A stretch of 64,000 bases of DNA, from positions 11,334-75,333 of the forward strand of contig JAZKIY010000016.1 in the NCBI GenBank assembly GCA_040384665.1, in the 5' to 3' direction. This stretch comes from Pseudomonadota bacterium (GTDB lineage Bacteria > Pseudomonadota > Gammaproteobacteria > Burkholderiales > Burkholderiaceae_C). Made by a program: the position numbers and the translations under genes. The notes beneath the pieces are model-generated. The model saw only the letters and a list, made by a program, of their open reading frames with translations. It had not been told where the DNA came from and did not search any database. The stretch's first letter is position 1; each line of letters opens with the position of its first letter. Positions 2,927-56,730 of this stretch are shown here, piece after piece.

Positions 2927-3729
2927 CGCAGCGCCCCCGCTTCCCGGCACAGGAAACCCTGCCCACCTGGGTCAAGCGCGCTCCTGAAAAAGGAGCTATA
3001 CCGCTAGGTTTTACTAAGGCTGGACCCATAAAAGGCTTAAAAAATGAGGGGTTGCCCTTGCCCGTGGCCGGTTGGGGCATGGATTCGGCCCGGGTGCGCG
3101 AGCGCATGGTCGCGTTGCTGGCACGGCAAGGCGTGTCCGACCCGCAGGTGCTGGCCGCCATGGGGCGTGTCGAGCGCCACCGCTTCGTCGATTCCGCGTT
3201 GGCCAACCAGGCTTACGAAGACACCAGCCTGCCCATCGGGCTTGGGCAAACCATCTCCAAGCCTGGCGTGGTGGCGCGCATGCTGGAACTGCTGCGTGAG
3301 CCCTGGGTGGGTTCCGGGCAGCCGCTCGGCCGGGTGTTGGAGATTGGCACCGGCTGTGGCTACCAGGCCGCCGTGTTGAGTGCGCTGGCAAGCGAGGTCT
3401 ACAGCATGGAACGCCTGCGCGGCCTGCACGAGAAAGCCCGCGAGAACCTGCGCCCGTTCCGGCTTGCCAACCTGCACCTGCTGCTGGGCGACGGCATGGC
3501 CGGCTACCCCAAGGGGGCGCCGTACGCGGCCATCATTGCCGCCGCCGGTGGCGAGGCCTTGCCGACCACCTGGATCGACCAGCTCGCGCCCGGTGGCCGC
3601 CTGGTGGCACCGGTGTGCCAGCCCAACGGCGCACAGGCACTGACGGTGGTGGACAAGACGCCCACAGGCATTGTTCAGCGCTTCCTCGAGCCCGTCCTCT
3701 TTGTGCCCCTAAAATCGGGTGTTGCATGA
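2923..3729 (+). CDS. pcm: protein-L-isoaspartate O-methyltransferase
   Basis: [16 protein letters not shown] and SAM motif [19 protein letters not shown] 2923 overlaps the surE stop (ATGA). Alternative start ATG 3079 would give an E. coli-length protein, so the start is uncertain. Confidence 0.85.
2980..3049 (+). repeat. low-GC palindromic element, copy A (forward)
   Basis: Hairpin gctcctgaaaaaggagc plus core ggagctataccgctaggttttactaaggctgga (2992-3024). Lies in the pcm N-terminal extension or the surE-pcm spacer. Confidence 0.8.
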
Positions 3730-4595
3730 CCCGGAGGTATCGCGTGGTGTTTCGTAACTCTACAGTCGTGGTGGTGGCACTGATGGCTGTGCTGCTCTCC
3801 GCCTGCTCGTTCAACCGCGCGCCCAACCGGGCACCGGTCGAAGACCGCGCCGGCAGCAAGCCGCGGCCCATCGTCCGGCCGTCCAACGACACCCCCACAG
3901 TGGCACCCGACGCAGAGAACGCTGGCAAACCCGGTTTCTACACCGTCAAGCCCGGCGACACACTCAACCGCATTGGTTTTGAGGTCGGGCAGCGCCCGGC
4001 CGACATCGCCCGCTGGAGCGGCCTGGCCAACCCCAATGTGCTGGAAGTCGGACAGGTGCTGCGCGTTGTGGCGCCACCGTCCGAGGCGCCCGTTGCGCAA
4101 ACCAAGCCGGTCATCCCGCCCGGCATCTTGAGTTCGCCTGTGCCCACACCGCTGCCACCCGTGGGTGCGGCGTCTGTGCCCAACATCGCCACCACCGACA
4201 GCACACAGCCGCCTCCGGCCAGCGACGAAGAGGTGGCCTGGATGTGGCCGGCCACCGGCAACGTGATCGCCGGGTTTGACGAGGCCAAAAACAAGGGCCT
4301 GGACTTCGCTGGCAGCGCCGGAGACCCGGTACTGGCCGCGGCCGACGGTCGGGTGGTTTACGCCGGCGCAGGCTTGCGTGGCTACGGCAACCTCATCATC
4401 CTCAAACACAACAACACCTACCTCACCGCCTACGCGCACAACCAGCTGCTGCTGGTGAAGGAAGACCAGAACGTGCGCCGGGGCCAGAAGATTGCCGAGA
4501 TGGGCAACAGCGACGCCGACCGCGTGAAGCTGCACTTCGAGGTGCGCCGGCAAGGCAAGCCGGTGGACCCTGCCAAGTACCTGCCAGGCCGCTGA
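3726..4595 (+). CDS. nlpD: LysM/M23 peptidase lipoprotein NlpD
   Basis: Lipobox LLSAC, LysM segment [17 protein letters not shown], and M23 C-terminus [24 protein letters not shown] 3726 overlaps the pcm stop. Confidence 0.85.
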
Positions 4596-4597
4596 CG

Positions 4598-5575: not shown

Positions 5576-5580
5576 GCACC

Positions 5581-6398: not shown

Positions 6399-7874
6399 AT
6401 GACCGCAGCGACACCGCCAGACACTCCTCCATTGCCCGCAGGCCAGTCCCACGACCCCACCCGCGCCCCCGACACCGCCCACTCCCTGCCGCCAGGCCAC
6501 CTGCGGGTGGACGCGCTCGACATCGATGCGCAGGGCGTGGCCCGCAAACCCGATGGCAAGGTGGTCTTCATCGAAGGCGCACTGCCGTTCGAGGAGGTGA
6601 GCGTCAACGTTCACCGCAAGAAAAACAACTGGGAGCAGGGCACCGTCACGGCCATCCACCGCGAGTCGTCACAGCGCGTGAAGCCCGGCTGCCCGCATTT
6701 TGGCCTGCACGCCGGCGCCTGCGGCGGCTGCAAGATGCAGCACCTGCACCCGGCTGCGCAGGTGGCCGTCAAGCAGCGGGTGCTGGAAGACAACCTGTGG
6801 CACCTTGGCAAGGTCAAGGCCGAAACGGTGATGCGGCCCATCGAAGGCCCGGCCTGGGGCTACCGCTACCGCGCCCGGCTGTCGGTGCGCCATGTGCACA
6901 AGAAGGGCGAGGTGTTGGTGGGGTTCCACGAGCGCAAGAGCCGCTACGTGGCCGACATGCGCGAATGCCATGTGTTGCCGCCGCATGTGAATGCGATGCT
7001 GATGCCGCTGCGCGCGCTGGTTGCCTCGATGGACGCGATTGAAACACTCCCGCAGATTGAACTCGCCTGTGGTGACGAGGTGACCGCGCTGGTGCTGCGC
7101 CACCTGGAACCGCTCAGCCAGGCCGACCTGGCACGGCTGCGTGCGTTTGCGGTCGAACGACCTGGCTTGCAGTGGTGGTTGCAGTCCAAAGGACCAGAGA
7201 CGGTCAAGCTGCTCGACGAAGGCGGGCCTGAACTGGCGTACGCGCTGCCGCAATTCGGCATCACCATGCCCTTCAAGCCAACCGACTTCACCCAGGTCAA
7301 CCCGCACATCAACCGCGTGCTGGTGGCGCGTGCGCTGCGCCTGCTCGACCCCCAGCGGTCCGAGCGCGTGATCGACTGGTTCTGTGGTTTGGGCAACTTC
7401 ACGCTGCCGCTGGCCACGTTGGCCGGCGAAGTGCTTGGGATTGAGGGCAGCGAGGCCCTGGTGGCACGTTCCAGAGAGAATTTGAAGCTGAATCAGGATC
7501 AAGCCCTAGTGAAAACTAGGTTGTCAGCTACTAAATTTGTAGCGCGAAACCTCTTTGAGATGACCCCCGAGTTGCTGGCCGCTGACGGCCACGCCGACAA
7601 GTGGCTGGTGGACCCACCGCGCGAAGGCGCGTTCGCACTCGCCCAGGCATTGGCCGGCCTGAACCAGCAGCATCTGGCTGGGACGCCGTGGCCCGCTGGC
7701 TGGACCCCGCCCCAGCGCATCGTCTACGTCAGTTGCAACCCCGCCACGCTGGCCCGCGATGCCGGCCTGCTTGTGAACCTGGGGGGTTACCGCTGCACAG
7801 CGGCCGGGGTGGTGAACATGTTCCCGCACACAGCCCACGTCGAAAGCATCGCAGTCTTCGACCGCGTAGCGTAA
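6399..7874 (+). CDS. rlmD: 23S rRNA (uracil-C5)-methyltransferase RlmD (RumA)
   Basis: TRAM-like N-terminal part, Fe-S Cys cluster [21 protein letters not shown] motif [21 protein letters not shown], and catalytic [13 protein letters not shown]. Confidence 0.85.
7474..7543 (-). repeat. low-GC palindromic element, copy E (reverse), inside rlmD
   Basis: The reverse complement of 7499-7531 is gtagctgacaacctagttttcactagggcttga. Hairpin gctacaaatttagtagc. Confidence 0.8.
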
Positions 7875-23540: not shown

Positions 23541-25397
23541 ATGGCATTGCTGCAAATTTCTGAACCAGGCTACTCGCCCGACCCGCACACCCGGCGCATT
23601 GCGCTGGGCATTGACCTGGGCACCACGCACTCGCTGGTGGCGGCGGTGCGCAACGGTGTGGCCGAGTGCCTCCCCGACGCCCTTGGCCAGGTCGTCTTGC
23701 CTTCGGTGGTGCGCTACCTGGACAACAACGGCCGAAAAATCGGCTTTGAGGCGCAGGCCGCCCTCAGTGACGACCCGGAAAACACCATCGCTTCGGTCAA
23801 GCGCTTCATGGGGCGGGGCTTGGCCGACATTGCCAACCGCGACCAACTGCCTTACCGCTTCATCGACAAACCTGGCATGGTCGGCCTGATGACACGCGCC
23901 GGCGAGAAGTCCCCGGTGGAGGTGAGTGCCGAGATTCTGGCGACGCTGCGCTTTCGCGCCGAAGACACCTTCAACGACGACATCCATGGCGTGGTGATCA
24001 CCGTGCCGGCCTATTTTGACGACGCCCAGCGCCAGGCGACCAAAGACGCGGCCCAACTCGCCGGCCTGAACGTGCTGCGTCTGATCAACGAACCCACCGC
24101 CGCCGCGATTGCCTATGGGCTGGACAACGCCAGCGAGGGCATCTACGCGGTGTACGACCTCGGTGGCGGCACCTTCGACATTTCCATCCTGCGCCTGAGC
24201 CGTGGCGTGTTCGAAGTGATTGCCACCGGCGGCGACTCGGCCCTGGGCGGCGACGACTACGACCGCGCGCTGGCCGACTGGGTGCTGCAGCAAACCGGCA
24301 CCGTGGTGGACAACGCCTCCGACAAGGCCGCAATGAAAGTTGCCGCACGGGCCTGCAAGGAAGCGCTGACTGCTACAGATTCCGTAGCATTCTCGGTAGA
24401 TTTGACTGAGGCTCAGCTGCGATTTGAGGTAAAAATTGCCGATTTTGAGGCAACAACGGCTGCCTTGACCGCCAAAACCCTGTCCGCGGTCCGCAAGGCC
24501 CTGCGCGATGCCAAGCTGCAGAAAGACGAGGTCAAGGGCGTGGTGATGGTGGGTGGCTCCACCCGCATGCCGCAGATCCAGCGCGCCGTGGCCGATTTCT
24601 TTGGCCAGGCACCGCTGAACAACCTCAACCCCGACGAGGTGGTGGCGCTGGGCGCCGCCATCCAGGCCAACCAGCTGGCCGGCAACGCCGGCAGCGAAGA
24701 CCTGCTGCTGCTCGACGTGATCCCGCTCTCACTCGGCATCGAGACCATGGGCGGTCTGGTCGAACGCATCGTGCCCCGCAACCAGACCATCCCCACCGCC
24801 ATGGCGCAGGACTTCACCACCTACCAGGACGGCCAGACCGCGCTGGCGCTGCACGTGGTGCAGGGCGAACGCGACCTGGTGGCCGACTGCCGCAGCCTGG
24901 CGCGTTTCGAGCTGCGCGGCATTCCGCCGATGGCCGCCGGCGCCGCCCGCATCCGGGTGGTGTTCACGGTCGACGCCGACGGCCTGCTGAGCGTCAGTGC
25001 CAAAGAGCAGGGCAGCGGCGTCGAGGCGAAAATCGACGTCAAACCGTCTTATGGCCTGACCGACGACCAGATCGCCACCATGCTGCAAGACAGCTTTGCC
25101 ACCGCCGAACAAGACATGCAGGCCCGCGCGCTGGCCGAAGCCCGGCTGGAGGCCGACCGCATGCTGCTGGCGATTGGCTCGGCACTGGCGGCCGATGCCG
25201 ACTTGCTGGGCACGCAAGAGCGTGCCACCATCGACACGCTGGCCCAGGCCGTGGTGGCGGCCAAACCCTTGACCGATGCCAAGGCGATTGAAGCGGCCAC
25301 CGAAGCGCTGGCCAAAGGCACCGAAGCCTTTGCCGCCATGCGCATGAACCGGGGCATCCACAAAGCCCTGGCCGGCAAAAATATCGAGACGGTCTGA
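23541..25397 (+). CDS. hscA: Fe-S protein assembly chaperone HscA (Hsp70 family)
   Basis: [11 protein letters not shown]-terminus, [26 protein letters not shown] and [10 protein letters not shown] motifs. Confidence 0.95.
24372..24450 (+). repeat. low-GC palindromic element-like patch, copy G (forward), inside hscA
   Basis: Hairpin gctacagattccgtagc plus core gtagcattctcggtagatttgactgaggctcag (24384-24416). This is the most diverged copy. Confidence 0.7.
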
Positions 25398-28866: not shown

Positions 28867-28936
28867 GCTCTGTTTTTGATAGCTGAATCGCGAGATTTGA
28901 CTAGGGCTTGCAGTGCTTTTTGATCGAATTTGCGGC
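28867..28936 (+). repeat. low-GC palindromic element, copy D (forward), between the convergent FGase-like gene and pyrD
   Basis: Hairpin gctctgtttttgatagc plus core atagctgaatcgcgagatttgactagggcttgc (28879-28911). An adjacent inverted half-core ccctagaacactctag sits at 28849-28864. Confidence 0.8.
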
Positions 28937-35633: not shown

Positions 35634-35702
35634 GTCCACGATGGGTTGCTGGGTCGATGGGGGCCCCAGGAAACACACCTTGGGGCCGACTCGGCATTCT
35701 AC

Positions 35703-36284: not shown

Positions 36285-37093
36285 CGAGGTTTGACGTTGT
36301 CGTTCAGGGCCGCCAGCGCCATCTTGTCCACCAGCGCGGGCCAGAGGAATTTGAGCACACGGGCCAGCTTGTCGCGCGGCGTCATCAGCACCTCGCGTTG
36401 GCGGCGTTCCAGCCCGGTCAGCATCAGCTGCACGCAGGTGGCCACTGGCATGGCCTTGTCTTCTTTCAGGCCGCTGGTGCCAGCGGGCTGGCCGGCGGCG
36501 TTGAAGCCACGGCGGCGGATGTCTGTCGCCACCACGCCGGGGTAGGCGATGGTGACGCTGACGCCTGCACCCAACAACTCGGTGCGCAGCGCTTCAAAAA
36601 AGCCGGTCATCGCGAACTTGGTGGCGCTGTAGGCGGTGCGGCCCGGCACGCCCACCAGCCCGGCCAGGGACGACACTGCCAGGATGCTGCCACGCGTCGC
36701 CTTGAGGTGCGGCAGCGCCGCGTGCGTGCACCAGACGCTGCCCCAGTGGTTGATGCGCATCAGCGTTTCGTACCAGGCCAGGTCGGCGGCCTGCACATCG
36801 GCCAGCAGCGCCTGGGCCGACATGCCGGCGTTGTTGACCAGCACGTCGATGCGGCCAAAGCGGGCCACGGCAGCGTCAATCAGGGCGCGGCACTGCGGCT
36901 CGACCGACACGTCGGCCGGCACCACCAGCGTTTGCGCGCCCAGCGCCTCGCACGACGCCGCCACCGCCGCGAGCGCATTGGCGTTGCGGGCGGCCAGCAC
37001 CAGTGCGCAGGCACCGCCATGGGTGGCGGCCAGCTGGCGCGCCATCTCGGCGCCCAGGCCTTCCGATGCGCCGGTAATCACTATTGTTTTCAT
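36281..37093 (-). CDS. short-chain dehydrogenase/reductase (SDR)
   Basis: ATG 37093. MKTIVITGASEGLG cofactor motif and the YSATKFAMTGF catalytic YxxxK. Confidence 0.8.
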   Translation of the reverse strand: MKTIVITGASEGLGAEMARQLAATHGGACALVLAARNANALAAVAASCEALGAQTLVVPADVSVEPQCRALIDAAVARFGRIDVLVNNAGMSAQALLADVQAADLAWYETLMRINHWGSVWCTHAALPHLKATRGSILAVSSLAGLVGVPGRTAYSATKFAMTGFFEALRTELLGAGVSVTIAYPGVVATDIRRRGFNAAGQPAGTSGLKEDKAMPVATCVQLMLTGLERRQREVLMTPRDKLARVLKFLWPALVDKMALAALNDNVKPR

Positions 37094-37149
37094 AGCTGAA
37101 CCTCTAGGTTTCACTAAGGCTGGAGGCCGAAAAGACTTGAAAAATGCGG
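37080..37149 (+). repeat. low-GC palindromic element, copy B (forward), abutting the SDR start codon
   Basis: Hairpin (a)ctattgttttcatagc plus core atagctgaacctctaggtttcactaaggctgga (37092-37124). Confidence 0.8.
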
Positions 37150-43981: not shown

Positions 43982-44010
43982 TTGACGTTGTATTAATGAA
44001 TGCCAATAAT
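43982..44010 (+). promoter_or_regulatory. candidate sigma-70 promoter for the orphan gene
   Basis: TTGACG, a 17-nt spacer, then AATAAT, ending 30 nt upstream of ATG 44040. Confidence 0.4.
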
Positions 44011-44039
44011 CTCATGCTAATGAACCTATTTCGTCATCA

Positions 44040-44609
44040 ATGTCCATAACTGATTGGCTTACCCTTGCGCTTGTACTGATTACTACCTTTTATGCGTGGG
44101 CGACGTTTGAGATTCTTCGCGCTAATAAAAGCGTAGTACAAGCGATGCAGGCTCAAACCGAAGCTCAGTTGCGCCCCTACATCGTCGCTGCCGTTGCGGT
44201 TCGTGCTGGCACAACTCTTCTACTACTTGAGATTCGGAATACTGGAAAATCGCATGCAGTTGATGTCCGTTTGGCGATGGATAAGGACTTCTTCTTTAAT
44301 GGGGAGAAAGCTGAAAAAAATATCGCTAGGATGAATATCTTTACACAGCCGATTGAGTCACTTTCTCCGGGGGTAAGTATCCCATTCGTTCTCGGAGTCG
44401 GACATTCGATATTTGCTAATAGTGTGGATGACTCAATCTGTCCTAAGGTGTTCTCTATAACAGCGGAGTATTCGTTCGCGGGAAGACGATACAAAGAACA
44501 GAACATTATCGACCTACGACCGCTGATGAATAGCAGCGCGGAACATGATCCTATCGCTGAGGAAGTGAAGAAGTTTCGTGAGAGTCTTGAGAAGGTGCTC
44601 CGAAAGTGA
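44040..44609 (+). CDS. hypothetical membrane-anchored protein (low-GC orphan)
   Basis: 189-aa ORF in a ~40% GC patch. N-terminal TM helix WLTLALVLITTFYAWATFEIL, and AT-rich codon usage unlike its neighbours. I recognise no family. Confidence 0.55.
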   Translation: MSITDWLTLALVLITTFYAWATFEILRANKSVVQAMQAQTEAQLRPYIVAAVAVRAGTTLLLLEIRNTGKSHAVDVRLAMDKDFFFNGEKAEKNIARMNIFTQPIESLSPGVSIPFVLGVGHSIFANSVDDSICPKVFSITAEYSFAGRRYKEQNIIDLRPLMNSSAEHDPIAEEVKKFRESLEKVLRK

Positions 44610-44615
44610 CGGGGC

Positions 44616-44661
44616 TTGCGAAAACTGATCACGTGGGCATCCGCGTGATCAGTTTTCGCAA
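44616..44661. repeat. perfect 18-bp inverted repeat (stem-loop) after the orphan gene
   Basis: ttgcgaaaactgatcacg, a 10-nt loop, then cgtgatcagttttcgcaa. No U-run follows. Confidence 0.85.
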
Positions 44662-44764
44662 AGGCAACCAACGGACTGAGTTGGGTTCAGATCCCAACTC
44701 TGCCCTGGCGTTCAAGCCGAACGCGGCCCCCCGGTTGGCGTGAGCCGACGCACCCCAACACGCC

Positions 44765-45580
44765 ATGACCCGGAACCAATCCCTCACCCGCCCCAACGCG
44801 ACAGCCCAGGCCAGCATCCAGGCCCAGGTGGCGGTGCTGGTGACGCTGTCCACCCTGCTGCAGTGCCTCGCGCTGCTCGGCGTGTTGCCCATTGCCCCCG
44901 GCAGTCTGGGGCGCCATGTGTACAGCACGGTGGAGTTGTTGCTGGTGGCTGGGTTGCTTTACCAGGGGTGGCGCATCTGGCAGTGGGCTGTGGCGACGGG
45001 GCAAGGTGCGCTGGTGCAGCAGGTGGCGCGGCTGTGTTTTTATTCGCTGCTGCTGTGTGGCTTGGGCGACATCGTCAACCGCAACTACCTCGAACGGTAC
45101 TACCAATGGGACGAGGTGATCCGGCACGGCTACCTGATCCAGTCCATTGTGTTTTTCTTCCCTGGCTATACCTTGGTGCTGGTGGCCAACTGGCTTTTGG
45201 GCGCGCCGCATGTCCGCCCGCGCACGGTGGTGTTGGGCACCCTGGCTGCGCTGGGGGTGGGGGCTCTGGCGTTCTTCGGCAGTTTCGACCCTCGGGTGAA
45301 TGCCTTGGCCTCGGCGGCCATGCTGGCCTACACCCTGTTGCACGCGGTGCTGGTGGTGTCTGTGGTGTGGGTGGTCCGGGCCTGTGGCTGGTCTGCCAGC
45401 AGCCTGGTGGCGATCGGTGTGTTTCTGGCGGCGGTGGCAGATGCGCTGATTGGCCATTTCTGGATTTTCAGCGACCATTTCCCGGTGATCGAACACGTGA
45501 ACTGGATCGTCTATTTCGCCTCGCTGGCGCTGATTCAGCAGTTGCCATTTTTGGCAGCGCGGGCACATCCGGCCGATTGA
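44765..45580 (+). CDS. polytopic integral membrane protein (possibly YhhN/lysoplasmalogenase-like)
   Basis: 271 aa with 7-8 hydrophobic segments. The LLCGLGDIVN and IFSDHF motifs are reminiscent of YhhN, but the family call is tentative. Confidence 0.55.
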   Translation: MTRNQSLTRPNATAQASIQAQVAVLVTLSTLLQCLALLGVLPIAPGSLGRHVYSTVELLLVAGLLYQGWRIWQWAVATGQGALVQQVARLCFYSLLLCGLGDIVNRNYLERYYQWDEVIRHGYLIQSIVFFFPGYTLVLVANWLLGAPHVRPRTVVLGTLAALGVGALAFFGSFDPRVNALASAAMLAYTLLHAVLVVSVVWVVRACGWSASSLVAIGVFLAAVADALIGHFWIFSDHFPVIEHVNWIVYFASLALIQQLPFLAARAHPAD

Positions 45581-45668
45581 GATGGCGTGATCATTCGCGC
45601 CGAACACCAGGGCCACCCACGCGCTGACGTGGGCCCCGCGTTCCCTTCCGCTTGCCTTTCTGGCTGGC

Positions 45669-46175
45669 TCAGGACAGCCGCAACTCTTCGTGTTTGCCCA
45701 AGCTGGTGGGTCGCTCGCCGGTCACTGCGGCTTTGGCCATTTTGAAGAGCTGGGTCATCTTGCTTTCCTGCACGTCCCAGTATTCGGCCTGAGCGATGTG
45801 CACCGCCAGCAAAACAAGGTCGGGGTCGGTGGGGCCGCCGGGGAACCAGGCTTTGGCGAGGGGCGACCAGAGTTCTTCTTTGCGGCGGGCGTCGTCCACA
45901 AATTCGGCGGTGCCGGCGAGCGACACATAGCTGTCGGCGCCCGGGTCGGCAAAGCTCACGTTGACCGCCTTGTCTGCCTGCAGGCGCGCATGGGGTTCGC
46001 CAGACTTGGCGATGAAGAAGTACAGCGTGGCGTCTTCGTCGATGTCGCGGTTCTGGACTGTCATTGGTTGCGCATAAAGCGCGCCGCTGGGGCCCCGGCT
46101 GGTCAGCATGCCGAAGCGGATGTCTTTGATGAGTTCCCACAGCTTGGTGTGGATGGTGGACGGGTCGGTGGGCAT
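45669..46175 (-). CDS. pyridoxamine 5'-phosphate oxidase-like / general stress protein 26 family
   Basis: ATG 46175 within ORF 45669..46307. IRFGMLTS...LYFFIAKSGEPHARL...AEYWD pattern. Confidence 0.7.
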   Translation of the reverse strand: MPTDPSTIHTKLWELIKDIRFGMLTSRGPSGALYAQPMTVQNRDIDEDATLYFFIAKSGEPHARLQADKAVNVSFADPGADSYVSLAGTAEFVDDARRKEELWSPLAKAWFPGGPTDPDLVLLAVHIAQAEYWDVQESKMTQLFKMAKAAVTGERPTSLGKHEELRLS

Positions 46176-46293: not shown

Positions 46294-46761
46294 TCAGGCC
46301 ACTTCAACGATCATTTCAATTTCCACACACGCCCCCAACGGCAGCTGCGCCACGCCAAAGGCGCTGCGGGCGTGGGCGCCGCGTTCGCCAAACACCTGGC
46401 CGATCAGCTCGCTGCAGCCGTTGGTGACGAGGTGGTGGTCGGTGTAGTCGGGTGTGGAGTTCACCAAGCTCATCAGCTTGACGATGCGTTTGACGCCGTT
46501 CAGGTCACTGCCGGCGGCCTGCATGGCGGCGTTCAGGGTGCCGAGCAGGTCGATGGCGATGGCGCGGGCGGCGGCTTTGCCTTCTTCGGTGGCCATGTTC
46601 TTGCCGAGTTGGCCGACCCAGGGTTTGCCGTCTTTCTTGGCGATGTGGCCGCTCAAAAACACCAGCTTGCCACTTTGCACAAAGGGCACGTAGGCGGCTG
46701 CGGGCACGGAAACGGGGGGCAGGGTGATCTGGAGCTGTTCCAGGGTGGTGTAAATGCTCAT
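46294..46761 (-). CDS. RidA/YjgF/RutC family protein
   Basis: 155 aa with a GKLVFLSGHIA...SAFGVAQLPLGACVEIEMIVEV C-terminus typical of the family. Confidence 0.8.
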   Translation of the reverse strand: MSIYTTLEQLQITLPPVSVPAAAYVPFVQSGKLVFLSGHIAKKDGKPWVGQLGKNMATEEGKAAARAIAIDLLGTLNAAMQAAGSDLNGVKRIVKLMSLVNSTPDYTDHHLVTNGCSELIGQVFGERGAHARSAFGVAQLPLGACVEIEMIVEVA

Positions 46762-46764: not shown

Positions 46765-46834
46765 GTCTCTTTTTTAGGTCAAATAGGCTTCAAGCCCTAG
46801 TACAGTCTAGCGATGTTGCTATTGAATGAATAGC
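46765..46834 (-). repeat. low-GC palindromic element, copy F (reverse), filling the ridA / transglutaminase spacer
   Basis: The reverse complement of 46790-46822 is atagcaacatcgctagactgtactagggcttga. Hairpin gctattcattcaatagc. Confidence 0.8.
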
Positions 46835-46836: not shown

Positions 46837-47820
<984 letters not shown>

Positions 47821-47846
47821 GGCGGGCTTTCAGTGGCCTGGGGCTT

Positions 47847-50522
47847 TCAAGCGCCGACGCTGAGCTTGTCTTCGCCCGAATGGGTGAAGTACAGCGCGCC
47901 AATGCGCTCTGACAGGCGGTAGGCCACGGCGCTGCACTGGGCCAGCTGGTCGATGAAGGCCGGGTGGCGCGGCGCAGCGGGGCGCTGTTTGTCGGTGGCG
48001 GGTGCATTGCCGGCGGGGGCGGCCTGCACCATCTCGGCCAGTGACCAGCTGCCGGGGTCGGGCAGGGCCAGGCCGAGCGCGTCCAGCGCGTCAGGCGTGG
48101 TGCCGGCCAGCTTGGCGAGCCGGCCACCGAGCGACTGCGCCACCCACCCAAGCGAGCGCGGGTTGTCGCGGTCCAGCACCAGCAAATCCAGCAGCGCCGG
48201 GATGTCGCGCCGCTGCTGGTACTGGGCGTGGAAGGTGATGGTGCTGTCAAACAGCGCCACCAGCGCCTCGAAGCCGCCTTCGTCGTGCACCGCACCGGTC
48301 TCGAAGCTCTCGGCCATGGCGGTGGAGAGAAAGCCCAGCCGCTCGATGTGTCGGCCGATGCTGAGCAGGCGCCAGCCGTCGTCGCGCGTCATGCGGTCGG
48401 TTTGCGCGCCGGTCATGGCGGCCATGTACATGCTGGCGGCTTCCAGCGCCTGCAGCGCGTGGGTGGTGGCGTAGTCGCCGTGGTTTTCGGTGAAGCGTTG
48501 GAAAAACTCGGCCTCGGCGCGGCCGATCAGTTTCCATTGCTCCTGCGACAGCCGCTCCCGCACCGACGACGCGGCCAGCCGGGTGGCGCGCAGGTTGTAG
48601 CCGACGCTGCCGGCGCCGTCTTCGGCCGTCAGGTTGGCCACCAGCGAACGCTCGAACACCCGGCGGGCCTGGGTGGCGGCGGGCACGTCGGGTAGCACCA
48701 GGTTGGTGCGCACCGCGAGGTCGCTCAGCCAGGCCAACAGCGGCTGGGACGACTGGTCTTCGCCGTTCAGCGACTCCAGCGTCAGCCGGGCCAGGCGGAT
48801 GGTGTTCTCGGTGCGCTCGGTGTAGCGGCCAAGCCAGAACAGGTTCTCGGCGGCGCGGCTGGTGACGACCCGCTTGCCGTGCACCAAAGACGAGCGCGAG
48901 GCGCGCGCCGGCAACAGGGTGGAGTTGTCGACCTCGCCGTCGGTCATGACCCAGACGTCGGCGCTGCCGCCGCCGCGCTGCATCGAGGCGACGCCGGCGT
49001 CGGCACTGGCAATGCGGGCCAGCCCGCCGGGCAGCACGCGCCAAGAGCGCGGGCCGTCAGACACCGCGTACACCCGCAGCAGCACCGAGCGCGGCACGAT
49101 GCGGCCGGTGTCCGCCGGGGACGTGCCCTCGGGCGCATCGGGCCGCCAGGTTGGCATTTGTGACAGCGGCAGGTAAGACTGCACGGTGTGCGCGTCGCCC
49201 TGCCGCATGATGCGGCCAGCCCATTCGTCGAGCTGGCGGCGCGACTGCGAGCGGCCCAGCACCGCGTGGAAAGAACCGTGGCTGCGCGAGCCCACATAGG
49301 TGGGCTTGATCACGCTCTGCTGCAGCCGGGGCAGCGCGTCCTGCATGGCCGCGCGTTCGCCGCACCACCAGGTGGGCATGGCCGGCAGCAGCAGTTTTTC
49401 GCCGGTGAAATGGCGCGACAGCGCAGGCAGAAAGCCCAGCAGCGCGGACGACTCCAGAAAACCCGCACCAGGCGCGTTGGCCACCAGCACGTTGCCGGCG
49501 CGGATGGCCTGCAGCAGGCCGGGCACGCCAAGGCGCGAGTCGGGGCGCAGCTCCAGCGGGTCGAGGAAAGGGTCGTCCAGCCGCTTCAGCAGGCCGTGCA
49601 CCGGCTCCAGCCCGCGCAGCGTGCGCAGGTAGACATGCTGGTCGCGCACCGTCAGGTCACTGCCTTCCACCAGCGTGATGCCGAGGTAGCGCGCCAGGTA
49701 GGCGTGCTCGAAATAGGTTTCGTTGTACGGGCCGGGCGTCAGCAGCGCAATGTGCGCGTCGGCCCCGGCGCTGCTGAGCTGCTTGAGGTTGTCGATCAGT
49801 GCCCGGTAGGTGGCCGCCAGCCGCTGGATGTGCAGGCCCTGGAAGGCCTGCGGAAACTGGCGCGAAATCGCGATGCGGTTTTCCAGCAGGTAACCCAGGC
49901 CAGACGGGGCTTCGGTGCTTTGCGACACCACCCACCAGTGGCCGTCGGGCCCACGGGCGAGGTCGAACGCCGCCACGTGCAACCGGGGGCCGGCCGCTGG
50001 CGGCGCGCCGTGCATCTCGCGCAGGTAGCCGGGGTGGCCCTGCACCAGGGCGGGTGGCAGCAGGCCCTTGGCCAGCAGCTGCTGCGGGCCGTACACGTCG
50101 GCCAGCACCTGTTCCAGCAGCTGCATGCGCTGCAGCACGCCGGCCTCGATCTGCCGCCAGTCGCCGGGCGGGATGATCAGCGGGAACAGCTCCAGCGACC
50201 AGGGCCGCTGCGGGCCGCTGGTGTCGGCATAGACGTTGTAGGTGACGCCGTTGTCGCGGATCTGCCGCGCCAGCTGGGCACTGCGGCGGTTCAGGTCCAG
50301 CAGGCCCTGGTGGCCCAGGTGGTTGAAGAAGCCGCGCCAGGGGCCGGTCAGGCCCGGCAGGCCGGCTGGCGCATCGCCGTGGGGGTTGCCGGCGTGGCCG
50401 CGGGTGGCACCACGCAGCTCGTCGTAATGCTCGGCCGCGGCCGGCGTCGCGAGGGCGCCGGCCAACCCGGCCGGGCTTTCGCCGGCCTGTGCGTCAAAAA
50501 GGGATGAATTTGGTGTTTCCAC
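47847..50522 (-). CDS. fusion protein: circularly permuted type-2 ATP-grasp domain + alpha-E domain
   Basis: 891 aa with a GTG start. The N-terminal half resembles the 497-aa CP ATP-grasp protein at 56817. The C-terminal half carries the alpha-E signature AAENLFWLGRYTERTENTIRLARL. Confidence 0.8.
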   Translation of the reverse strand: METPNSSLFDAQAGESPAGLAGALATPAAAEHYDELRGATRGHAGNPHGDAPAGLPGLTGPWRGFFNHLGHQGLLDLNRRSAQLARQIRDNGVTYNVYADTSGPQRPWSLELFPLIIPPGDWRQIEAGVLQRMQLLEQVLADVYGPQQLLAKGLLPPALVQGHPGYLREMHGAPPAAGPRLHVAAFDLARGPDGHWWVVSQSTEAPSGLGYLLENRIAISRQFPQAFQGLHIQRLAATYRALIDNLKQLSSAGADAHIALLTPGPYNETYFEHAYLARYLGITLVEGSDLTVRDQHVYLRTLRGLEPVHGLLKRLDDPFLDPLELRPDSRLGVPGLLQAIRAGNVLVANAPGAGFLESSALLGFLPALSRHFTGEKLLLPAMPTWWCGERAAMQDALPRLQQSVIKPTYVGSRSHGSFHAVLGRSQSRRQLDEWAGRIMRQGDAHTVQSYLPLSQMPTWRPDAPEGTSPADTGRIVPRSVLLRVYAVSDGPRSWRVLPGGLARIASADAGVASMQRGGGSADVWVMTDGEVDNSTLLPARASRSSLVHGKRVVTSRAAENLFWLGRYTERTENTIRLARLTLESLNGEDQSSQPLLAWLSDLAVRTNLVLPDVPAATQARRVFERSLVANLTAEDGAGSVGYNLRATRLAASSVRERLSQEQWKLIGRAEAEFFQRFTENHGDYATTHALQALEAASMYMAAMTGAQTDRMTRDDGWRLLSIGRHIERLGFLSTAMAESFETGAVHDEGGFEALVALFDSTITFHAQYQQRRDIPALLDLLVLDRDNPRSLGWVAQSLGGRLAKLAGTTPDALDALGLALPDPGSWSLAEMVQAAPAGNAPATDKQRPAAPRHPAFIDQLAQCSAVAYRLSERIGALYFTHSGEDKLSVGA

Positions 50523-50603
50523 GGGTCACGCAATTGTCACACCCAATCCGCAGGCAACAGGGCCAGACGTCGCAGCGAAGCGACACCTGGGCCTGGCCAT
50601 GGT

Positions 50604-53600
50604 TCAGGGCTTGGACGAATGCCGCATGTCGCGGGTGAACGGGAACTCGCGGCTGCCGGGCAGCTGGATGTTGGCGGCCGGCACCTGCAGCGTGCCGGGG
50701 GTGTGGCCCATGCGGAAGAAGCGGCCCAGGCGCCGGCTTTCGGCCTCGTAGGCGTTGACGGGGAAGGTCTCGTGGTTGCGGCCACCGGGGTGGGTGACGT
50801 GGTACTGGCAACCGCCGAGCGAGCGCTTCATCCAGGTGTCCACAATGTCAAACACCAGCGGGGCGTGCACACCGATGGACGGGTGCAGGCTGGACGGTGG
50901 GTTCCAGGCCTTGTAGCGCACGCCAGCGACGTACTCGCCCACGGTGCCGGTGGCCTGCAGCGGCAGCGGCTCGCCGTTGCAGGTGATGGCGTAGCGGCTG
51001 GTGTTGAAGCCGGTCACCCGCACCTCGATGCGCTCCAGCGACGAATCCACGTAGCGGGCGGTGCCGCCGGAGGTGCTTTCTTCGCCCATCACGTGCCAGG
51101 GTTCCAGCGCGTTGCGCAGCGTGAGTTCCACGCCCTGCACATGGACTTCGCCCACCAGCGGGAAGCGGAATTCAAAGTGCGGCGCAAACCAGGCCGGGTC
51201 GAAGGCGTAGCCGGCTTGTTTCATCTCGGCCATCACGTCGTCAAAGTCCATCTGCACAAAGGTCGGCAGCAGGAAGCGGTCGTGCAGCTCGGTGCCCCAG
51301 CGGGTGGCGGGCGCCTCGTACGGTGTTTTCCAGAAGCGTGCCACCAGGGCACGCAGCAGCAGCTGCTGGGCAATGCTCATGCGGGCGTGGGGCGGCATCT
51401 CGAAGGCGCGCAGCTCCAGCAGACCGAGCCGGCCGGTGGAACTGTCGGGCGAGTACATCTTGTCGATGCAGAACTCGCTGCGGTGGGTGTTGCCGGTGAC
51501 GTCGATCAGGATGTTGCGCAGCGCGCGGTCCACCAGCCACGGTGGCATGGTCTGGCCGTGTTTTTCGCGGTTCTTGCGGATTTCTGCCAGCGCAATTTCC
51601 AGCTCGTAGAGCTGGTCGTTGCGGGCTTCGTCGACACGGGGGGCCTGGCTGGTCGGGCCAATGAACATGCCGCTGAACAAATAGCTGAGCGACGGGTGGT
51701 TGTGCCAGTACAGCAGCAGGCTGGCCAGCAGCTCGGGCTGGCGCAAAAACGGGCTGTCGGCCGGGCTGGCGCCGCCCATCACAAAGTGGTTGCCACCGCC
51801 GGTGCCGGTGTGGCGGCCGTCGTTCATGAACTTCTCGGCCGAGAGGCGGGTCTCGAACGCGGCCTGGTACAGGAACTCGGTGTGTTGCACCAGCTCGTTC
51901 CACGAATGGGCCGGGTGGATGTTGACCTCGATCACGCCGGGGTCGGGGGTGACCTGCAGCACTTTCAGGCGCGGGTCGCGGGGCGGTGGGTAGCCTTCGA
52001 GCACCAGCTTCACGCCGAGTTCGGTGGCGGTGGCTTCAATGGCGGCGAGCAAATCGAGGTAGTCGTCCAGCCGCGCCAGGGGCGGCATGAAGCAGTACAG
52101 CGCGCTGGAGGGCTGGCCCTGTTTTTCGGCCTTGGGGCCGCTGGCGCGGCGCGGGTCGCGTACCTCCACACACAGCGCGGTGCGGGTCAGGCCTGCAGCC
52201 GAATGGAAGCGTTCTGGCGCTTTGGCAAAACCAGCCGGCTCGGGCTGGCCAGGGCGTTGTGCGTTGTCGGTGCCGATGGGCTGGCCGGGGCCGCCCTGGC
52301 GCAGGCGTGCGGCTTCGCCGGGGGCAACGCTGCGGGCCAGGTAGGCAATCGCCTGGCGGCCTTCGGCGGCTGGGGGCGCTGGCACGGATGCCGGTGCAGG
52401 GGCCGTGGCGGCGTAACGCGCCTGCAGCACGTTGGCGGGGGCCAGGGGGCCGCGCGGCGCAAACGGGTCCTGCTCGATCAGGTAGGGGTAGTCGGACTTG
52501 CTGACCCAGGGCAGGGCGTCCAGCGGCAGGCGGTAACCCATGGGCGAGTCGCCGGGGATCAGGTACATGCGGCCGTCGCGGAAGAACCAGGGGCCGGTGC
52601 GCCACAGCGGGCCGGCCAGGCGAGTGCCTGCGTCGTCGTCGTTCGGCTGCAGCGGCAGCACGTAGCCGACCACCGTGTCGAGTTTTTGCGAGAACACGCG
52701 GCGCAGCCGGGCGCGCTCCATCTCGTCGTCGAGCTTGGACTCGAACGGGTCCACGTTGACCGGCAGGCGGCCTTCGCGCCAGAGGTAATACAGCGCGTCC
52801 TCAAAGCCGGGCTGGATGTGCTGGTCGGTCAGGTTCAGCTTGTGGCTCAGCAGCGTGACGAAGCGTTTGGCGTCGTCGCTGGTGTAGTTGGAAGGCACAC
52901 GTTCGTCGGCAAACAAATCCGGGTTGCGCCACACCGGCTGGCCGTCGGCACGCCAGTAAATGCCCAGCGCCCAGCGCGGCAGTTGCTCGCCGGGGTACCA
53001 CTTGCCCTGGCCAAAGTGCAGGAAGCCGCCGCGGCCGTATTCGTTGCGCAGCTTGTGAACCAGCTCGGTGGCGATGCCGCGTTTGGTGGGGCCGAGGGCG
53101 TCGGTGTTCCATTCGGCGGCGTCGCGGTCGCCCACCGCCACAAAGGTGGGCTCGCCGCCCATGGTCAGGCGCACGTCGCCGGCCACCAGCTCCTGGTCGA
53201 CCGCGTTGCCGAGGGCCAGTACGGCGTCCCACTGCGCGTCGGTGTAGGGCTTGGTGACGCGGGGCGACTCGTGGATGCGGGTGATGCCCATGTGGTGGCT
53301 GAACTCGACCTCGGCCTCGTCCACGCCGCCCTCGATCGGGGCGGCACTCGACGGTTGCGGCGTGCAGGCCAGCGGGATGTGGCCTTCGCCGGCCATCAGG
53401 CCCGAGGTGGCGTCCAGCCCGATCCAGCCGGCGCCAGGCAGGTACACCTCGCACCAGGCGTGCAGGTCGGTGAAGTCCACCGTGGTGCCGCTGGGGCCGT
53501 CGAGCGCTTTCACGTCGGGCGTGAGCTGGATCAGGTAGCCGGAGACAAAACGCGCTGCCAGGCCGCAGTGGCGCAGCAGTTCCACCAGCAGCCAGCCCGA

Positions 53601-54146
53601 GTCGCGGCAGGAGCCGCTGGCGTTGGTCAGCGTTTCTTCCGGCGACTGCACGCCGGGCTCCATGCGGATCAAATAATTGATGTCGCGCGCCACCTGCTGG
53701 TTCAGGGCAACCAGGAAATCAATGGTGCGGCGGGGTGTGCGGTCGATCGCGTCCAGGTAGGTCTGCAGCATCGGCGTGGCGGGGCCGGTGATCAGGTATG
53801 GCGCGAGTTCCTGCTTCTGCGTTTCGCTGTAGGTGAACGGGAAGGTTTCCGCGTTGGGTTCGAGGAAGAAGTCGAACGGGTCGTAGACCGACATCTCGGC
53901 CACCATGTCCACCGTGACCTTGAACTCGGTGACTTTTTCGGGAAACACCAGCCGAGCCAGGTAGTTGGCAAACGGGTCCTGTTGCCAGTTGATGAAGTGG
54001 CCCACCGGCTCGACCTTGAGCGAATACGAAATGATGTTGCTGCGGCAGTGCGGCGCCGGGCGCAAACGCACCACTTGCGACCCGAGCGTGACCGGTCGGT
54101 CGTACTTGTAGTGGGTGATGTGGCTGAGGGCGGCGTGGATCGACAT
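50604..54146 (-). CDS. large transglutaminase-like protein (Bact_transglu_N + transglutaminase core + DUF2126-type C-terminal region)
   Basis: ATG 54146 gives [18 protein letters not shown]. Catalytic context [27 protein letters not shown] / [22 protein letters not shown]. About 1180 aa. Confidence 0.8.
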   Translation of the reverse strand: [1180 protein letters not shown]

Positions 54147-54282
54147 GCAGTGTTTCCGTGGTTGGAACGACAAAAAGCCAGGCTCTGGTTAACCGGCGCA
54201 GTCGTAGCTTAGCAAGACGCGAGCCATGCCAGTGTGACAGCCTTTGGCCAGCGTGCTTTCATAATGGCCAGCACCGCGTGCC

Positions 54283-56730
54283 ATGCCCCCGCCTTTGAAA
54301 CCGCCTTCCCCCGCCAAGCCGTCCGGCTGGGCTGCGCCCGCCGCGCTGGGGCCGGGCTTGCTGGCGGCGATTGGCGGAGTCGCCTGGCAGTTGCAGCAGG
54401 CGGCGCTCTGGGCTGGCTGGCGGTATGCGGGGTTGGCGTTGGCCGCGTTGGTGCTGCTGGTGTCTGCCTTGCGTTTCACCCGCGCTGGCCACTGGCGCAA
54501 CGGCTGGCTCTGCATCGGCCTGGTGGTGCTCGGTTTCAGCCTGACCGGGGCGCGCGCCAGTCTGCAGGCCCTGGAGCGGCTGGACCCGGCGCTGGAGGGG
54601 CGCGACATCGTGGTCACCGGCTGGGTGGCGGCCATGCCACAGCGCCATGCCAACGGCCTGCGGCTGCGTTTTGCGGTGGACTCGGCCAGCCTCGCCGGGC
54701 AACCGGTGCGCCTGCCGCCGTTGCTGCAACTTGGCTGGTACAGCGGCGCCTGGCGCGCCGAGCCGACCGATGCCCTGGCGCTGCAGCCTTCGCCTCCCGA
54801 GGTGAAGGCCGGTGAGCAGTGGCAGCTGACGGTGCGGCTGAAAGCGCCGCACGGCAACCACAACCCGCACGGGTTTGACTACGAACTGTGGCTGTGGGAC
54901 CAGCAGGTCCATGCCACCGGTTATGTGCGCGCCAGCGCCAAAGACCCCCCACCCCAGCGGCTTGCCAGCAGCTGGCGCTACCCGGTGGAGCAGGCCCGCC
55001 AGCGGGTGCGCGACGCGGTGTTTGTGCAGGTGCCCGACCCCCAGGTCGCGGGCGTGATTGCGGCGCTGGTCACCGGCGACCAGAGCGCCATTGACCGCGC
55101 CGACTGGGACGTCTTCCGTGCCACCGGCGTGGCGCACCTGATGAGCATCTCCGGCCTGCACATAACCATGTTTGCCTGGCTCGCCGCGGCGCTGGTGAAC
55201 GCGCTGTGGCGGCGCAGCGCGCGGCTGTGCCTGTGGCTGCCCGCGCCACACGCCGCGCTGGCGGGTGGCGTGGCGCTGGCGGCGGCCTACGCGCTGTTCA
55301 GCGGCTGGGGGGTGCCAGCCCAGCGCACCGTGTGCATGCTGGCTGTGGCAGCGCTGCTGCGGGCGTCGGGCCGGCACTGGCCGCCCATCACCCGCTGGCT
55401 GCTGGTGATGGCCGTGGTGGTGGCGCTCGACCCCTGGGCCTTGCTGCAGGCCGGTTTCTGGCTCAGTTTTGTCGCCGTGGCGGTGCTGTTTGCTACAAAT
55501 ACAGGAGCTGAATCGCAAGGTTCTACTAAGGCTTGGGGCAGATTTCGTTTAATTTTGAGTGAACAGGCGGTGGTCACGGTCGCTTTGGCACCTTTGACGC
55601 TGCTGTTGTTCGGCCAGGTCTCGCTGGTGGGCATGCTGGCCAACCTGCTGGCGATTCCCTGGGTGACGCTGGTGCTGACGCCGCTGGCCATGGCGGGTGC
55701 GGTGTTCGCGCCCCTCTGGACGCTGGCCGCCGGCGCGACCGACGCGCTGGTGTGGCTGCTGCGGCCCATGGCCGGCTGGCCGTGGGCCACCTATGCCACC
55801 GCGGCCGCGCCATTGTGGGCCGGCGTGGCGGGCCTGGCCGGCGGGGTGCTGCTGGTCTGGCGCTGGCCGTGGCCCTTGCGTGCGCTCGGTCTGCCCCTGT
55901 TGCTGCCAGTGCTGCTGTGGCAGGCGCCACGCCCGGCGCCGGGAGAGTTTGAGCTGCTCGCGGCCGACGTGGGGCAGGGCACCGCCGTGCTGGTGCGCAC
56001 CGCCCGCCACACCCTGGTGTACGACGCCGGCCCGCGTTTTTCGAGCGAGAGCGACGCCGGGCACCGGGTGCTGGTGCCGCTGCTGCGGGCGCTGGACGAG
56101 CGGGTCGACACGCTGGTGTTGAGCCACCGCGACCTGGACCACACCGGCGGCGCCGAAGCCGTGCTGGCCACGCAGCCGCAGGCCCGCCTGCTCAGCTCCA
56201 TCGAAGACCAGCACCCGCTGCAGGCGCTGCGGCCCGCCACCCGCTGCCATGCCGGCCAGCGCTGGGACTGGGATGGGGTGGCATTCGAGGTGCTGCACCC
56301 GCTGGCCGGCGACTACCAGACGCCGCAAAAAAGCAACGCCATGAGCTGTGTGCTGCGCGTGTCCAACGGCCGGCACCATGCGCTGCTGGCCGGCGACATC
56401 GAAGCCGCGCAGGAGGCACGGTTGGTGGCCAGTGGGGCCCCGCTGCAGGCCGATGTGTTGCTGGTGCCGCACCACGGCAGCAAGACATCGTCCACCAGCG
56501 CGTTTCTGGCCCAGGTGTCACCCCGTTTCGCGCTGGTGCAGGCCGCCTACCGCAACCGCTTTGGCCACCCGGCGCCAGCGGTGCTGGCACGTTACGACGC
56601 ACTCGGCATCGCGGTGTTCGACTCGCCCGGCTGCGGCGCCATGGCCTGGCGCTCGGCACAGCCCGCAACGCTGGACTGTCACCGCAATGCCCGGCGCCGC
56701 TACTGGCACCACCACACCGGTGCAGAATGA
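54283..56730 (+). CDS. comEC: DNA internalization-related competence protein ComEC/Rec2
   Basis: Polytopic competence domain (HLMSISGLHITMFAWL) plus a C-terminal MBL domain (LSHRDLDHTGG, LVPHHGSKTS). Confidence 0.8.
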   Translation: MPPPLKPPSPAKPSGWAAPAALGPGLLAAIGGVAWQLQQAALWAGWRYAGLALAALVLLVSALRFTRAGHWRNGWLCIGLVVLGFSLTGARASLQALERLDPALEGRDIVVTGWVAAMPQRHANGLRLRFAVDSASLAGQPVRLPPLLQLGWYSGAWRAEPTDALALQPSPPEVKAGEQWQLTVRLKAPHGNHNPHGFDYELWLWDQQVHATGYVRASAKDPPPQRLASSWRYPVEQARQRVRDAVFVQVPDPQVAGVIAALVTGDQSAIDRADWDVFRATGVAHLMSISGLHITMFAWLAAALVNALWRRSARLCLWLPAPHAALAGGVALAAAYALFSGWGVPAQRTVCMLAVAALLRASGRHWPPITRWLLVMAVVVALDPWALLQAGFWLSFVAVAVLFATNTGAESQGSTKAWGRFRLILSEQAVVTVALAPLTLLLFGQVSLVGMLANLLAIPWVTLVLTPLAMAGAVFAPLWTLAAGATDALVWLLRPMAGWPWATYATAAAPLWAGVAGLAGGVLLVWRWPWPLRALGLPLLLPVLLWQAPRPAPGEFELLAADVGQGTAVLVRTARHTLVYDAGPRFSSESDAGHRVLVPLLRALDERVDTLVLSHRDLDHTGGAEAVLATQPQARLLSSIEDQHPLQALRPATRCHAGQRWDWDGVAFEVLHPLAGDYQTPQKSNAMSCVLRVSNGRHHALLAGDIEAAQEARLVASGAPLQADVLLVPHHGSKTSSTSAFLAQVSPRFALVQAAYRNRFGHPAPAVLARYDALGIAVFDSPGCGAMAWRSAQPATLDCHRNARRRYWHHHTGAE
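55492..55561 (+). repeat. low-GC palindromic element, copy C (forward), inside comEC
   Basis: Hairpin gctacaaatacaggagc plus core ggagctgaatcgcaaggttctactaaggcttgg (55504-55536). Confidence 0.8.

Follow-up and report, generated by a model that had tools for sequence, protein, structure and literature searches.

Few components of bacterial genomes are as poorly understood as repeats of the repetitive extragenic palindromic (REP) type. REPs of the GTAG superfamily, which goes with the REP-associated tyrosine transposases (RAYTs), form short, high-copy, dispersed and species-specific classes (Nunvar 2010, PMC2817692; Di Nocera 2013, PMC3733652), and both GTAG- and CGTC-tagged REPs are placed at gene 3' ends and include intragenic copies in repair genes (PMC3733652). 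A repeat of another kind, the beta-proteobacterial repeat element (BRE), occurs in Bordetella and in Comamonadaceae (Polaromonas, Delftia, Acidovorax, Rhodoferax); it is about 90 bp long, has 69% GC, is flanked by T runs and is often arranged in tandem, in the manner of a variable number tandem repeat (Hot et al. 2011, PMC3110155). Here, we analyzed a 64-kb stretch of DNA (contig JAZKIY010000016.1, positions 11,334 to 75,333; hereafter the window, to which coordinates refer) that carries seven copies of a dispersed element with a fixed length of about 67 nt. Our analysis suggests, with a probability that we put at roughly 0.6, that these loci belong to an old, vertically inherited, fixed-length REP-like dispersed repeat, present here as an AT-rich variant whose central stem has degraded.

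An earlier note on this DNA had proposed seven related dispersed loci, standing out as AT-rich patches in GC-rich DNA and lying in both orientations, and on these points it was borne out. Reading out the sequence placed all seven cores at the coordinates and on the strands that the note had given, and the loci form a gap-free alignment of about 67 nt. By leave-one-out nhmmer searches of the window, 7 of 7 copies were recovered (E = 3.7e-10 to 7.9e-6), with no eighth position at E < 0.3 in the 64 kb. A profile built from 67 copies, mostly of other genomes, with the three intragenic window copies left out, recovered these same copies (in rlmD, hscA and comEC) at E = 2e-15 to 6e-12. The copies have a GC content of 39-45%, compared with 66-73% in their flanks and 65% in the window DNA. 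Two sub-motifs, GCTMY-N7-RKAGC (6 occurrences in the window versus 0.46 expected) and ACTRRGGCT (7 versus 1.07 expected), occur there exclusively within the seven copies.

It could be argued that AT-rich copies in a GC-rich genome inflate such scores, the similarity then being one of chance or composition among AT-rich patches, or that the loci are degenerate tRNA-like sequences, since GCT-N11-AGC recalls a D-arm. However, leave-one-out E values go down to 4e-10, no other AT-rich patch was detected, ARAGORN reported 0 tRNA or tmRNA genes, and a 42-nt pattern derived from the seven copies has dozens of matches in a related genome, as against 0 among 2.9 million viral contigs. We give this explanation almost no credence. 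The seven copies are listed below, with gene identities taken from Pfam and from synteny with annotated relatives and with E values, unless marked otherwise, from the 67-copy profile.

Copy 1, 2980..3046, + strand: intergenic, between surE (2087-2926, +) and pcm (3079-3729, +), sense; reads GCTCCTGAAAAAGGAGC, then core and tail; leave-one-out E = 3.7e-10.
Copy 2, 7477..7543, - strand: inside rlmD (6399-7874, +), antisense; encodes 22 residues in the single open minus-strand frame of the element; E = 6e-12.
Copy 3, 24372..24438, + strand: inside hscA (23541-25397, +), sense, frame 0; encodes 22 residues; E = 6.3e-12.
Copy 4, 28867..28933, + strand: convergent spacer between an FGase gene, whose stop codon TAG (28862-28864) ends 2 nt upstream, and pyrD (28901-29977, -), whose last ~11 codons and stop are supplied by the tail of the element; orthologous copies lie in three other loci (L001, L006 and L007).
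Copy 5, 37080..37146, + strand: between the start of an SDR gene (36281-37093, -), whose ATG falls within the first hairpin, and the end of the minus-strand ORF upstream, antisense to both genes; begins with ACT, not GCT; the best-scoring copy by nhmmer in the window; E = 1.3e-17.
Copy 6, 46768..46834, - strand: between a transglutaminase-like gene (46837-47820, -), whose TGA precedes the element by 2 nt, and a RidA/YjgF-like gene (46294-46761, -), sense; E = 8.8e-16.
Copy 7, 55492..55558, + strand: inside comEC (54283-56730, +), sense, frame 0; encodes ATNTGAESQGSTKAWGRFRLIL, within a Competence-domain loop; E = 2.1e-15.

The family extends well beyond the window. The 42-nt IUPAC pattern was scanned against 185,579 species genomes, in which about 4 chance matches were expected overall, and at least 62 matching stretches were found. 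At least 49 exact matches, in at least 45 different 8-kb blocks distributed between 0.12 and 3.04 Mb, lie in OZ260072.1, the closest complete genome, a 3.23-Mb metagenome-assembled genome (MAG) labelled "uncultured Burkholderiaceae" that shares 98% identity with the window in HscA and 95% in RlmD. Other matches, among those listed, come from MAGs labelled Polaromonas, Rhodoferax, Comamonadaceae and Burkholderiales and from Ottowia flava. The suggestion of a Comamonadaceae repeat thus holds, with relatives in Polaromonas, Rhodoferax, Acidovorax-like bacteria, Variovorax, Ottowia and MAGs. A single match in Methylophilaceae was not upheld by a hidden Markov model search, and the lack of any match among the 2.9 million viral contigs speaks against a phage association.

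As a whole, 70 distinct copies align gap-free, with the consensus tgaTT GCTAYtgATTyaRTAGC TgAAtCGCtAGaTTyCACTrrGGCTtG AGGCCgATTTGGCTTgAAAA; it should be noted that most copies of other genomes were ascertained by a fixed-spacing pattern, which makes the invariance of columns and the absence of gaps in columns 1-44 partly a matter of construction. The tail is the least conserved part of the element, and to its right the flank past the AAAA tail is not conserved. Pairwise identity among copies has a median of 62% and a maximum of 86%; with no near-identical pairs, nothing points to recent mobility. Every copy is a singleton; the closest neighbors are separated by 4.5 kb in the window and by more than 1.7 kb in the other loci. 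A second, GC-rich short repeat, GCCyCTGaAgGGCC / CTGTGAGGGCC, was seen to the right of the element tail at six loci of OZ260072.1 (L015, L031, L049, L062, L063 and L047), sometimes in tandem; it lies outside the 67-nt unit.

Comparison with other Comamonadaceae contigs (740 kb, fetched via relatives of HscA and RlmD) resolved the element into three modules. Module 1 is GCTAY-N7-RTAGC, and its relaxed form GCTMY-N7-RKAGC occurs 50 times in the 740 kb versus about 5 expected by extrapolation from the expectation for the window. Module 3 is the shared tail, AGGCC-GATTTGGCTT-GAAAA. In most relatives, module 2 forms a GC-rich palindrome of 9 bp, TGCYAGCGCWT-N7-AWGCGCTRG, with an RTAG(C) tag 3 nt upstream, so that module 1 is followed by TGCYAGCGCWT-N7-AWGCGCTRG-AGGCC-nATTTGGCTTAAA, ending in the same tail as in the window. 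In the lineage of the window, module 2 is reduced to a remnant, CGCTAG..ACTRRGGCTTG, which is what the earlier note had described as paired CTAG tetranucleotides. Across the 70 copies the tag reads RKAG, with A (42/70) or G (28/70) at the first base and mostly T (60/70) at the second.

In the canonical relatives, the two stems are 83.5% paired, versus 17-48% in slid controls, four pairs have changed on both sides, and two examples fold with z-scores of -3.0 and -5.2. The vestigial stem of the window type is 68% paired without covariation. The 23 canonical copies align gap-free with one another and column for column with the window type, and this gap-free match with stem-bearing copies argues that the window type is a derived variant whose palindrome has decayed. 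Judged from these alignments, the seven loci are a lineage-specific, AT-rich, degraded-stem variant of a repeat found across the Comamonadaceae. A third core type, CGTCCAGG..CCTGGACC, was found in Variovorax terrae, in which two copies (locus L008, 4515-4580 and 6373-6440) keep the first hairpin unchanged and continue with CGTCCAGGGCGCCTGGACC, a different palindrome; the same core variant is also imprinted in the hscA gene of this species (L008, 10832).

The structural part of the initial description needs to be toned down for the window variant itself. A GCT-N11-AGC hairpin had been assigned to all seven copies, of which the one at 37080 begins with ACT, and the 17-nt hairpin is secure for 3-4 bp only, without covariation in this variant. 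As DNA, the window copies fold weakly (z-scores of -2.8 to +1.5), which makes "palindromic" a generous label for what is here a vestige.

The same description had called the element REP/MITE-like, and of this pair of terms the second does not hold. A classical MITE (miniature inverted-repeat transposable element), that is, a deletion derivative of an insertion sequence (IS) mobilized in trans, with terminal inverted repeats and target-site duplications, would fit the small size, the dispersal in both orientations, the lack of coding capacity and the absence of a nearby transposase. On this last point the earlier note is supported within the window, where Pfam found housekeeping genes only and no transposase, integrase or Y1 nuclease. 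However, the ends of the consensus, read directly, are TTGCTAC/TTGCTAY and GGCTTGAAAA and are not inverted repeats of each other, and the check for target-site duplications came out negative: flanks share 4-, 5- and 6-mers in 28, 11 and 4 cases, versus 34.3, 10.2 and 2.4 in shuffled pairings. No longer repeat or IS carrying the element was found, an all-against-all BLAST of the sampled loci, which cover part of the genome, returning orthologous regions only. Furthermore, no pair of copies is more than 86% identical, and 6 of the 9 intragenic copies compared with distant homologues show a length difference of -8 to +8 residues at most. Without inverted ends, duplications, IS relatives or near-identical pairs, the element is not a recently active MITE, and we regard a MITE origin as highly improbable. 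The absence of target-site duplications is a trait shared with REPs.

The REP half of the description is supported by where the copies lie. Based on heuristic gene calls from GC content at the three codon positions, 42 copies are intergenic, and 39 of these lie in convergent (18) or tandem (21; 13 sense and 8 antisense) spacers and 3 in divergent ones. In element orientation, the left neighbor is the 3' end of a gene in 31 of the 42. A stop codon lies exactly 2 nt before the first G in 13 of the 70 copies (TGA in 10 of them) and 1-3 nt before it in 22. Intergenic placement is REP-like, mainly at gene 3' ends, as REPs likewise occupy convergent and unidirectional spacers at about 20 bp or less from the 3' end of the upstream gene (PMC3733652). 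Where the element is antisense to the downstream gene, the start codon is often in the first hairpin or a few nt beyond it (window position 37093; loci L042, L050, L052, L058 and L068), and in such cases a GCTCC variant of the hairpin gives a Shine-Dalgarno-like GGAGC on the opposite strand.

Copies that follow directly on stop codons at 3' ends would also be expected of a structured RNA family selected at the RNA level, whether as small RNA genes or as cis-acting stabilizer or terminator modules of the 3' untranslated region. The well-paired hairpins of the relatives, with some compensatory and G-U changes, and the RNA roles proposed in the REP literature point in the same direction. Against it, Rfam gave no match at gathering or permissive thresholds, with only chance matches far below threshold at E <= 10. 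RNAalifold found no conserved structure for the window type on either strand: pairs 4 and 5 of the hairpin and a presumed second hairpin lack covariation, and pair frequencies equal the expectation under independence. No sigma-70 promoter or intrinsic terminator site overlaps any copy, the totals of such sites being at the level of shuffled sequence, and sigma-54 and -10/-35 readings made by hand were not conserved among copies. In addition, 8 of the 21 copies in tandem spacers and 11 of the 19 within genes run antisense to transcription. As an account of the family, selection at the RNA level is unlikely, whereas an RNA role is possible for the intergenic sense copies. By analogy with REPs, the intergenic copies of what we read as a REP-like repeat would probably act either in the transcript, near the 3' end or the site of translation termination, or as protein-binding DNA.

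The repeat is not purely extragenic. Three of the seven window copies and about one quarter of all copies (19 of 70; 8 sense and 11 antisense) lie in-frame within genes. Among the 51 non-genic copies, frame +0 is open in 26, -1 in 28 and -0 in 16, and frames +1, +2 and -2 in 1 each; all 8 sense and all 11 antisense genic copies use frames +0 and -1, and the TGA that the element carries at codon 15 is substituted in every sense genic copy. Copies in coding loops thus persist only in one frame per strand. Beyond HscA, RlmD and ComEC, the host ORFs recognized by translation include MutS, DprA, a RecB/AddA-like helicase-nuclease, MetG, RlmJ, MoeA, CobU, PBP1C, an outer-membrane efflux protein, an acyl-CoA synthetase and others; MutS, DprA, RlmJ, MoeA and CobU were matched to solved structures, and the other hosts outside the window are named from their translations alone.

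A 66-nt insertion should lengthen a protein by 22 residues, and most hosts differ little from their homologues. HscA has 618-619 residues in most Comamonadaceae matches and a difference of +4 residues against E. coli, and its element-encoded peptide ATDSVAF... is homologous to a native loop strand; the RlmD loop has an identical length in the Comamonadaceae sequences compared and is 8 residues longer than in E. coli. The Competence domain of ComEC has 269 residues on 269 Pfam profile positions; the length difference of ComEC against its homologue is -8 residues, and in a solved ComEC the loop at the position of the element is longer still. DprA (0 residues) and MutS (-1) are collinear with their solved homologues. 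Only RlmJ (+15), CobU (+19) and MoeA (+38) appear to carry insertions. These comparisons rule out a simple insertion into hscA, rlmD, comEC, dprA and mutS and suggest that most genic copies replace pre-existing loops or linkers.

The Rickettsia palindromic elements RPE-1 to RPE-8, reportedly described by Ogata et al. in 2000 and taken up in PMC3733652, offer a close parallel for such copies. They are 100-150 bp long, clearly palindromic and CGTC-tagged, and they add 30-50 residues to their host proteins. Like them, the Comamonadaceae element is a small dispersed repeat that many housekeeping genes carry in-frame, at surface loops or linkers; it is ancient and decaying, is kept at orthologous sites among species and has no known transposase. 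In contrast to them, most of its genic copies are length-neutral, and its host is a free-living, GC-rich betaproteobacterium. REPs likewise have occasional in-frame genic copies, notably in DNA repair genes and tRNA synthetases (PMC3733652), although one quarter is far above the usual share. BREs, too, are mostly intergenic with some copies wholly within coding sequences (PMC3110155), and their published GC-rich sequences (TTTTTTTGGCCGCGGGCCGCCCAAGGCAAAAAAGCCCCC...) share no similarity with the element, which excludes an identity of the two (PMC3110155).

The age of the repeat is also seen at orthologous sites. All four window sites with relatives in other genera (hscA, rlmD, surE-pcm and FGase-pyrD) have module 1 at the orthologous position, and orthologous copies were kept in every comparison made. 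In the surE-pcm spacer of Ramlibacter (L073) and of the MAG GCA_027490925.1 (L072), the first hairpin is kept and the core has diverged. Within genes, rare codons (GCT ACW ... GTA GC) make up module 1 in genomes whose third codon positions have about 80-85% GC, and in hscA this GCTAY-N7-GTAGC is retained in Variovorax and Rhodoferax. Among 46 metagenomic rlmD genes, 17 have the hairpin, as GCT ACN NNN TTY GTA GCN (peptide LAAT), and 29 lack it, mostly reading CCC ACC ... GTG (peptide LAPT); the loop has 28 residues in 17 of the 17 hairpin genes and in 12 of the 29 others (~40%). Intermediates with a single arm of the hairpin were found at L076, L077 and L082, among loci L075-L154. Canonical copies also recur at positions ~570 and ~8800, flanking rlmD, in four unrelated metagenomic contigs (L077, L079, L084 and L085), which look like orthologous intergenic sites; the window has no copy there.

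The core behaves differently from the hairpin. When columns 18-49 were typed by log-odds of position weight matrices, the hscA copy of the window scored +17 as window type, -21 as canonical and -15 as V. terrae type, and the V. terrae hscA copy scored -30 as window type, not positive as canonical and +15 as V. terrae type. Similarly, the rlmD copy of the window scored +25 as window type, +7.5 as canonical and not positive as V. terrae type, and those of five other genomes scored -6 to -39, +19 to +29 and not positive, respectively. Each hscA and rlmD orthologue thus matches the core type of its own genome, which argues that the central core evolves in concert per genome, the hscA and rlmD copies included, with the caveat that coding constraint makes orthologues alike for other reasons. 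In RlmD, an otherwise conserved ALAAT has become RLSAT alongside the core type.

Lineage-specific dialects of this sort are also known from the uptake signal sequences (USS) of Haemophilus and the DNA uptake sequences (DUS) of Neisseria. These have cores of 9-12 nt at about 1 per kb, occur in both orientations in genes and spacers without indels, show enrichment close to 3' ends and in genes of genome maintenance, and have AT-rich, helically phased flanks. The element resembles them in its use of orientations, its genic and spacer sites, its 3'-end bias, its genome-maintenance hosts and its dialects, and one may ask whether its copies are DNA recognition sites that arose and were sharpened in situ, by molecular drive as for USS and DUS or by selection for a chromosome-organizing protein, with no unit ever spreading. 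Such an origin would account for the length-neutral copies in hscA, rlmD, comEC, dprA and mutS, for the dimorphism of rlmD with its constant loop length and single-arm intermediates, for the persistence of orthologous sites, and for hosts in DNA maintenance and competence (mutS, dprA, comEC and the helicase-nuclease-like ORF, whose family is known from translation only). However, a 67-nt motif of more than 40 bits is not plausibly assembled by point mutation from random sequence. The window has about 1 copy per 9 kb and other sequence fewer, compared with about 1 per kb for USS and DUS, and in the window the sub-motifs never stand alone. Moreover, RlmJ, CobU and MoeA look like cases of insertion, and orientation shows no convincing replication-strand bias relative to local GC skew (7/19 versus 13/12). 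We consider an origin of the sites in situ quite unlikely.

Taking into account the analogy with REPs and RAYTs, the concerted evolution and constant length of the REP-like repeat could be maintained by a genome-specific trans-acting activity that recognizes the hairpin modules. This activity might be that of a Y1 HUH nuclease of the RAYT type, acting on single-stranded DNA, and its outcome would be a templated replacement from copy to copy, not a classical insertion. In its most specific form, which we put forward tentatively and hold to be doubtful, this would amount to a length-preserving "cassette overwrite" in Comamonadaceae, in which an enzyme reads GCTAY-N7-RTAGC plus the tail and swaps the ~30-nt core for that of another copy. 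If so, more than 100 dispersed elements would be kept in concert, including those in the essential genes hscA, rlmD, comEC, mutS and dprA, and protein loops would be rewritten without a change in length, which would make this a new way of maintaining repeats and a new source of lineage-specific loop variation.

Several observations speak against reading the loci as a REP-like repeat, some of them being differences from described REPs. No RAYT or Y1 transposase was found by Pfam in the window, and tblastn with an approximate E. coli RAYT query found nothing below E = 0.2 in 1.44 Mb of partial genome coverage, so that no RAYT has been linked to the family within these limits. The tag, RKAG and mostly ATAG, is looser than the strict GTAG of described REP families and than the GTAG variants listed for them (PMC3733652). 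The window variant is AT-rich, folds weakly without covariation and has largely lost its palindrome, and the copies are singletons, unlike the head-to-head dimers typical of REPs and unlike REPINs, in which two inverted REPs form one long hairpin. Other points concern the data themselves: the fixed-spacing pattern used for ascertainment inflates conservation as well as the lack of gaps in columns 1-44, genes in the loci were called heuristically, the core type of V. terrae comes from two copies, and the rate at which orthologous copies evolve is only slightly below that of third codon positions, most pairs having been ascertained with the same pattern. The element further departs from REPs in its strictly constant length and in being a longer (67 nt), tripartite unit, which includes an AT-rich tail that is conserved and an extra small hairpin in which the tag is repeated in inverted form. 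Shared with REPs, in the canonical Comamonadaceae relatives, is an xTAG tag that is unpaired and lies a few bases 5' of a GC-rich, imperfect palindrome.

In the literature searched, by name or by sequence string, no description of a REP-type family in Comamonadaceae was found, and the matches to the window-type and canonical core strings were primers in unrelated papers only. Elements of this kind, and intragenic REPs in repair genes, are already known (PMC3733652). What seems to be new is the Comamonadaceae family itself, with its tripartite unit of fixed length and its AT-rich, degraded-stem variant, as do the length-neutral copies in conserved genes that evolve in concert with the other copies of the genome.

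Other features of the window were observed along the way. Just before the TGA that precedes copy 6, the gene at 46837-47820 (- strand) carries a (CAACAG)n run (46840-46880) that encodes a C-terminal poly-glutamine. Paralogous gene sets lie on either side of comEC on opposite strands, one at 46837-54173 (-), with a circularly permuted ATP-grasp, an Alpha-E domain and transglutaminase/DUF2126 proteins, and one at 56787-59270 (+), with ATP-grasp and Alpha-E only. The lowest GC of the window (58%) is at 44000-46000, where the ORFs 44040-44609 and 44765-45580 have no Pfam match and may be foreign or fast-evolving. Finally, at 33649-35678 (-), the longest ORFs of a BamC/NlpB-like lipoprotein and of DapA (DHDPS) overlap by about 225 nt, the true start of the lipoprotein probably lying downstream of its first start codon.

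For annotation, the repeat is a warning, since start sites, stop sites and C-termini overlap its copies, and it is also useful as a marker for the binning and typing of this lineage. For the biology of REP-type repeats, the family offers a clean natural experiment, with a fixed length, orthologues that can be traced across genera and some copies inside conserved proteins. The sequence of the RlmD loop, in which ALAAT gave way to RLSAT, follows the type of the repeat and not the phylogeny of the protein, which points to a force at the nucleotide level that overrides protein conservation, the candidates being templated conversion or selection for a trans-acting factor. If this is confirmed, the homogenization of REPs and the reshaping of proteins by selfish or domesticated repeats would become testable.

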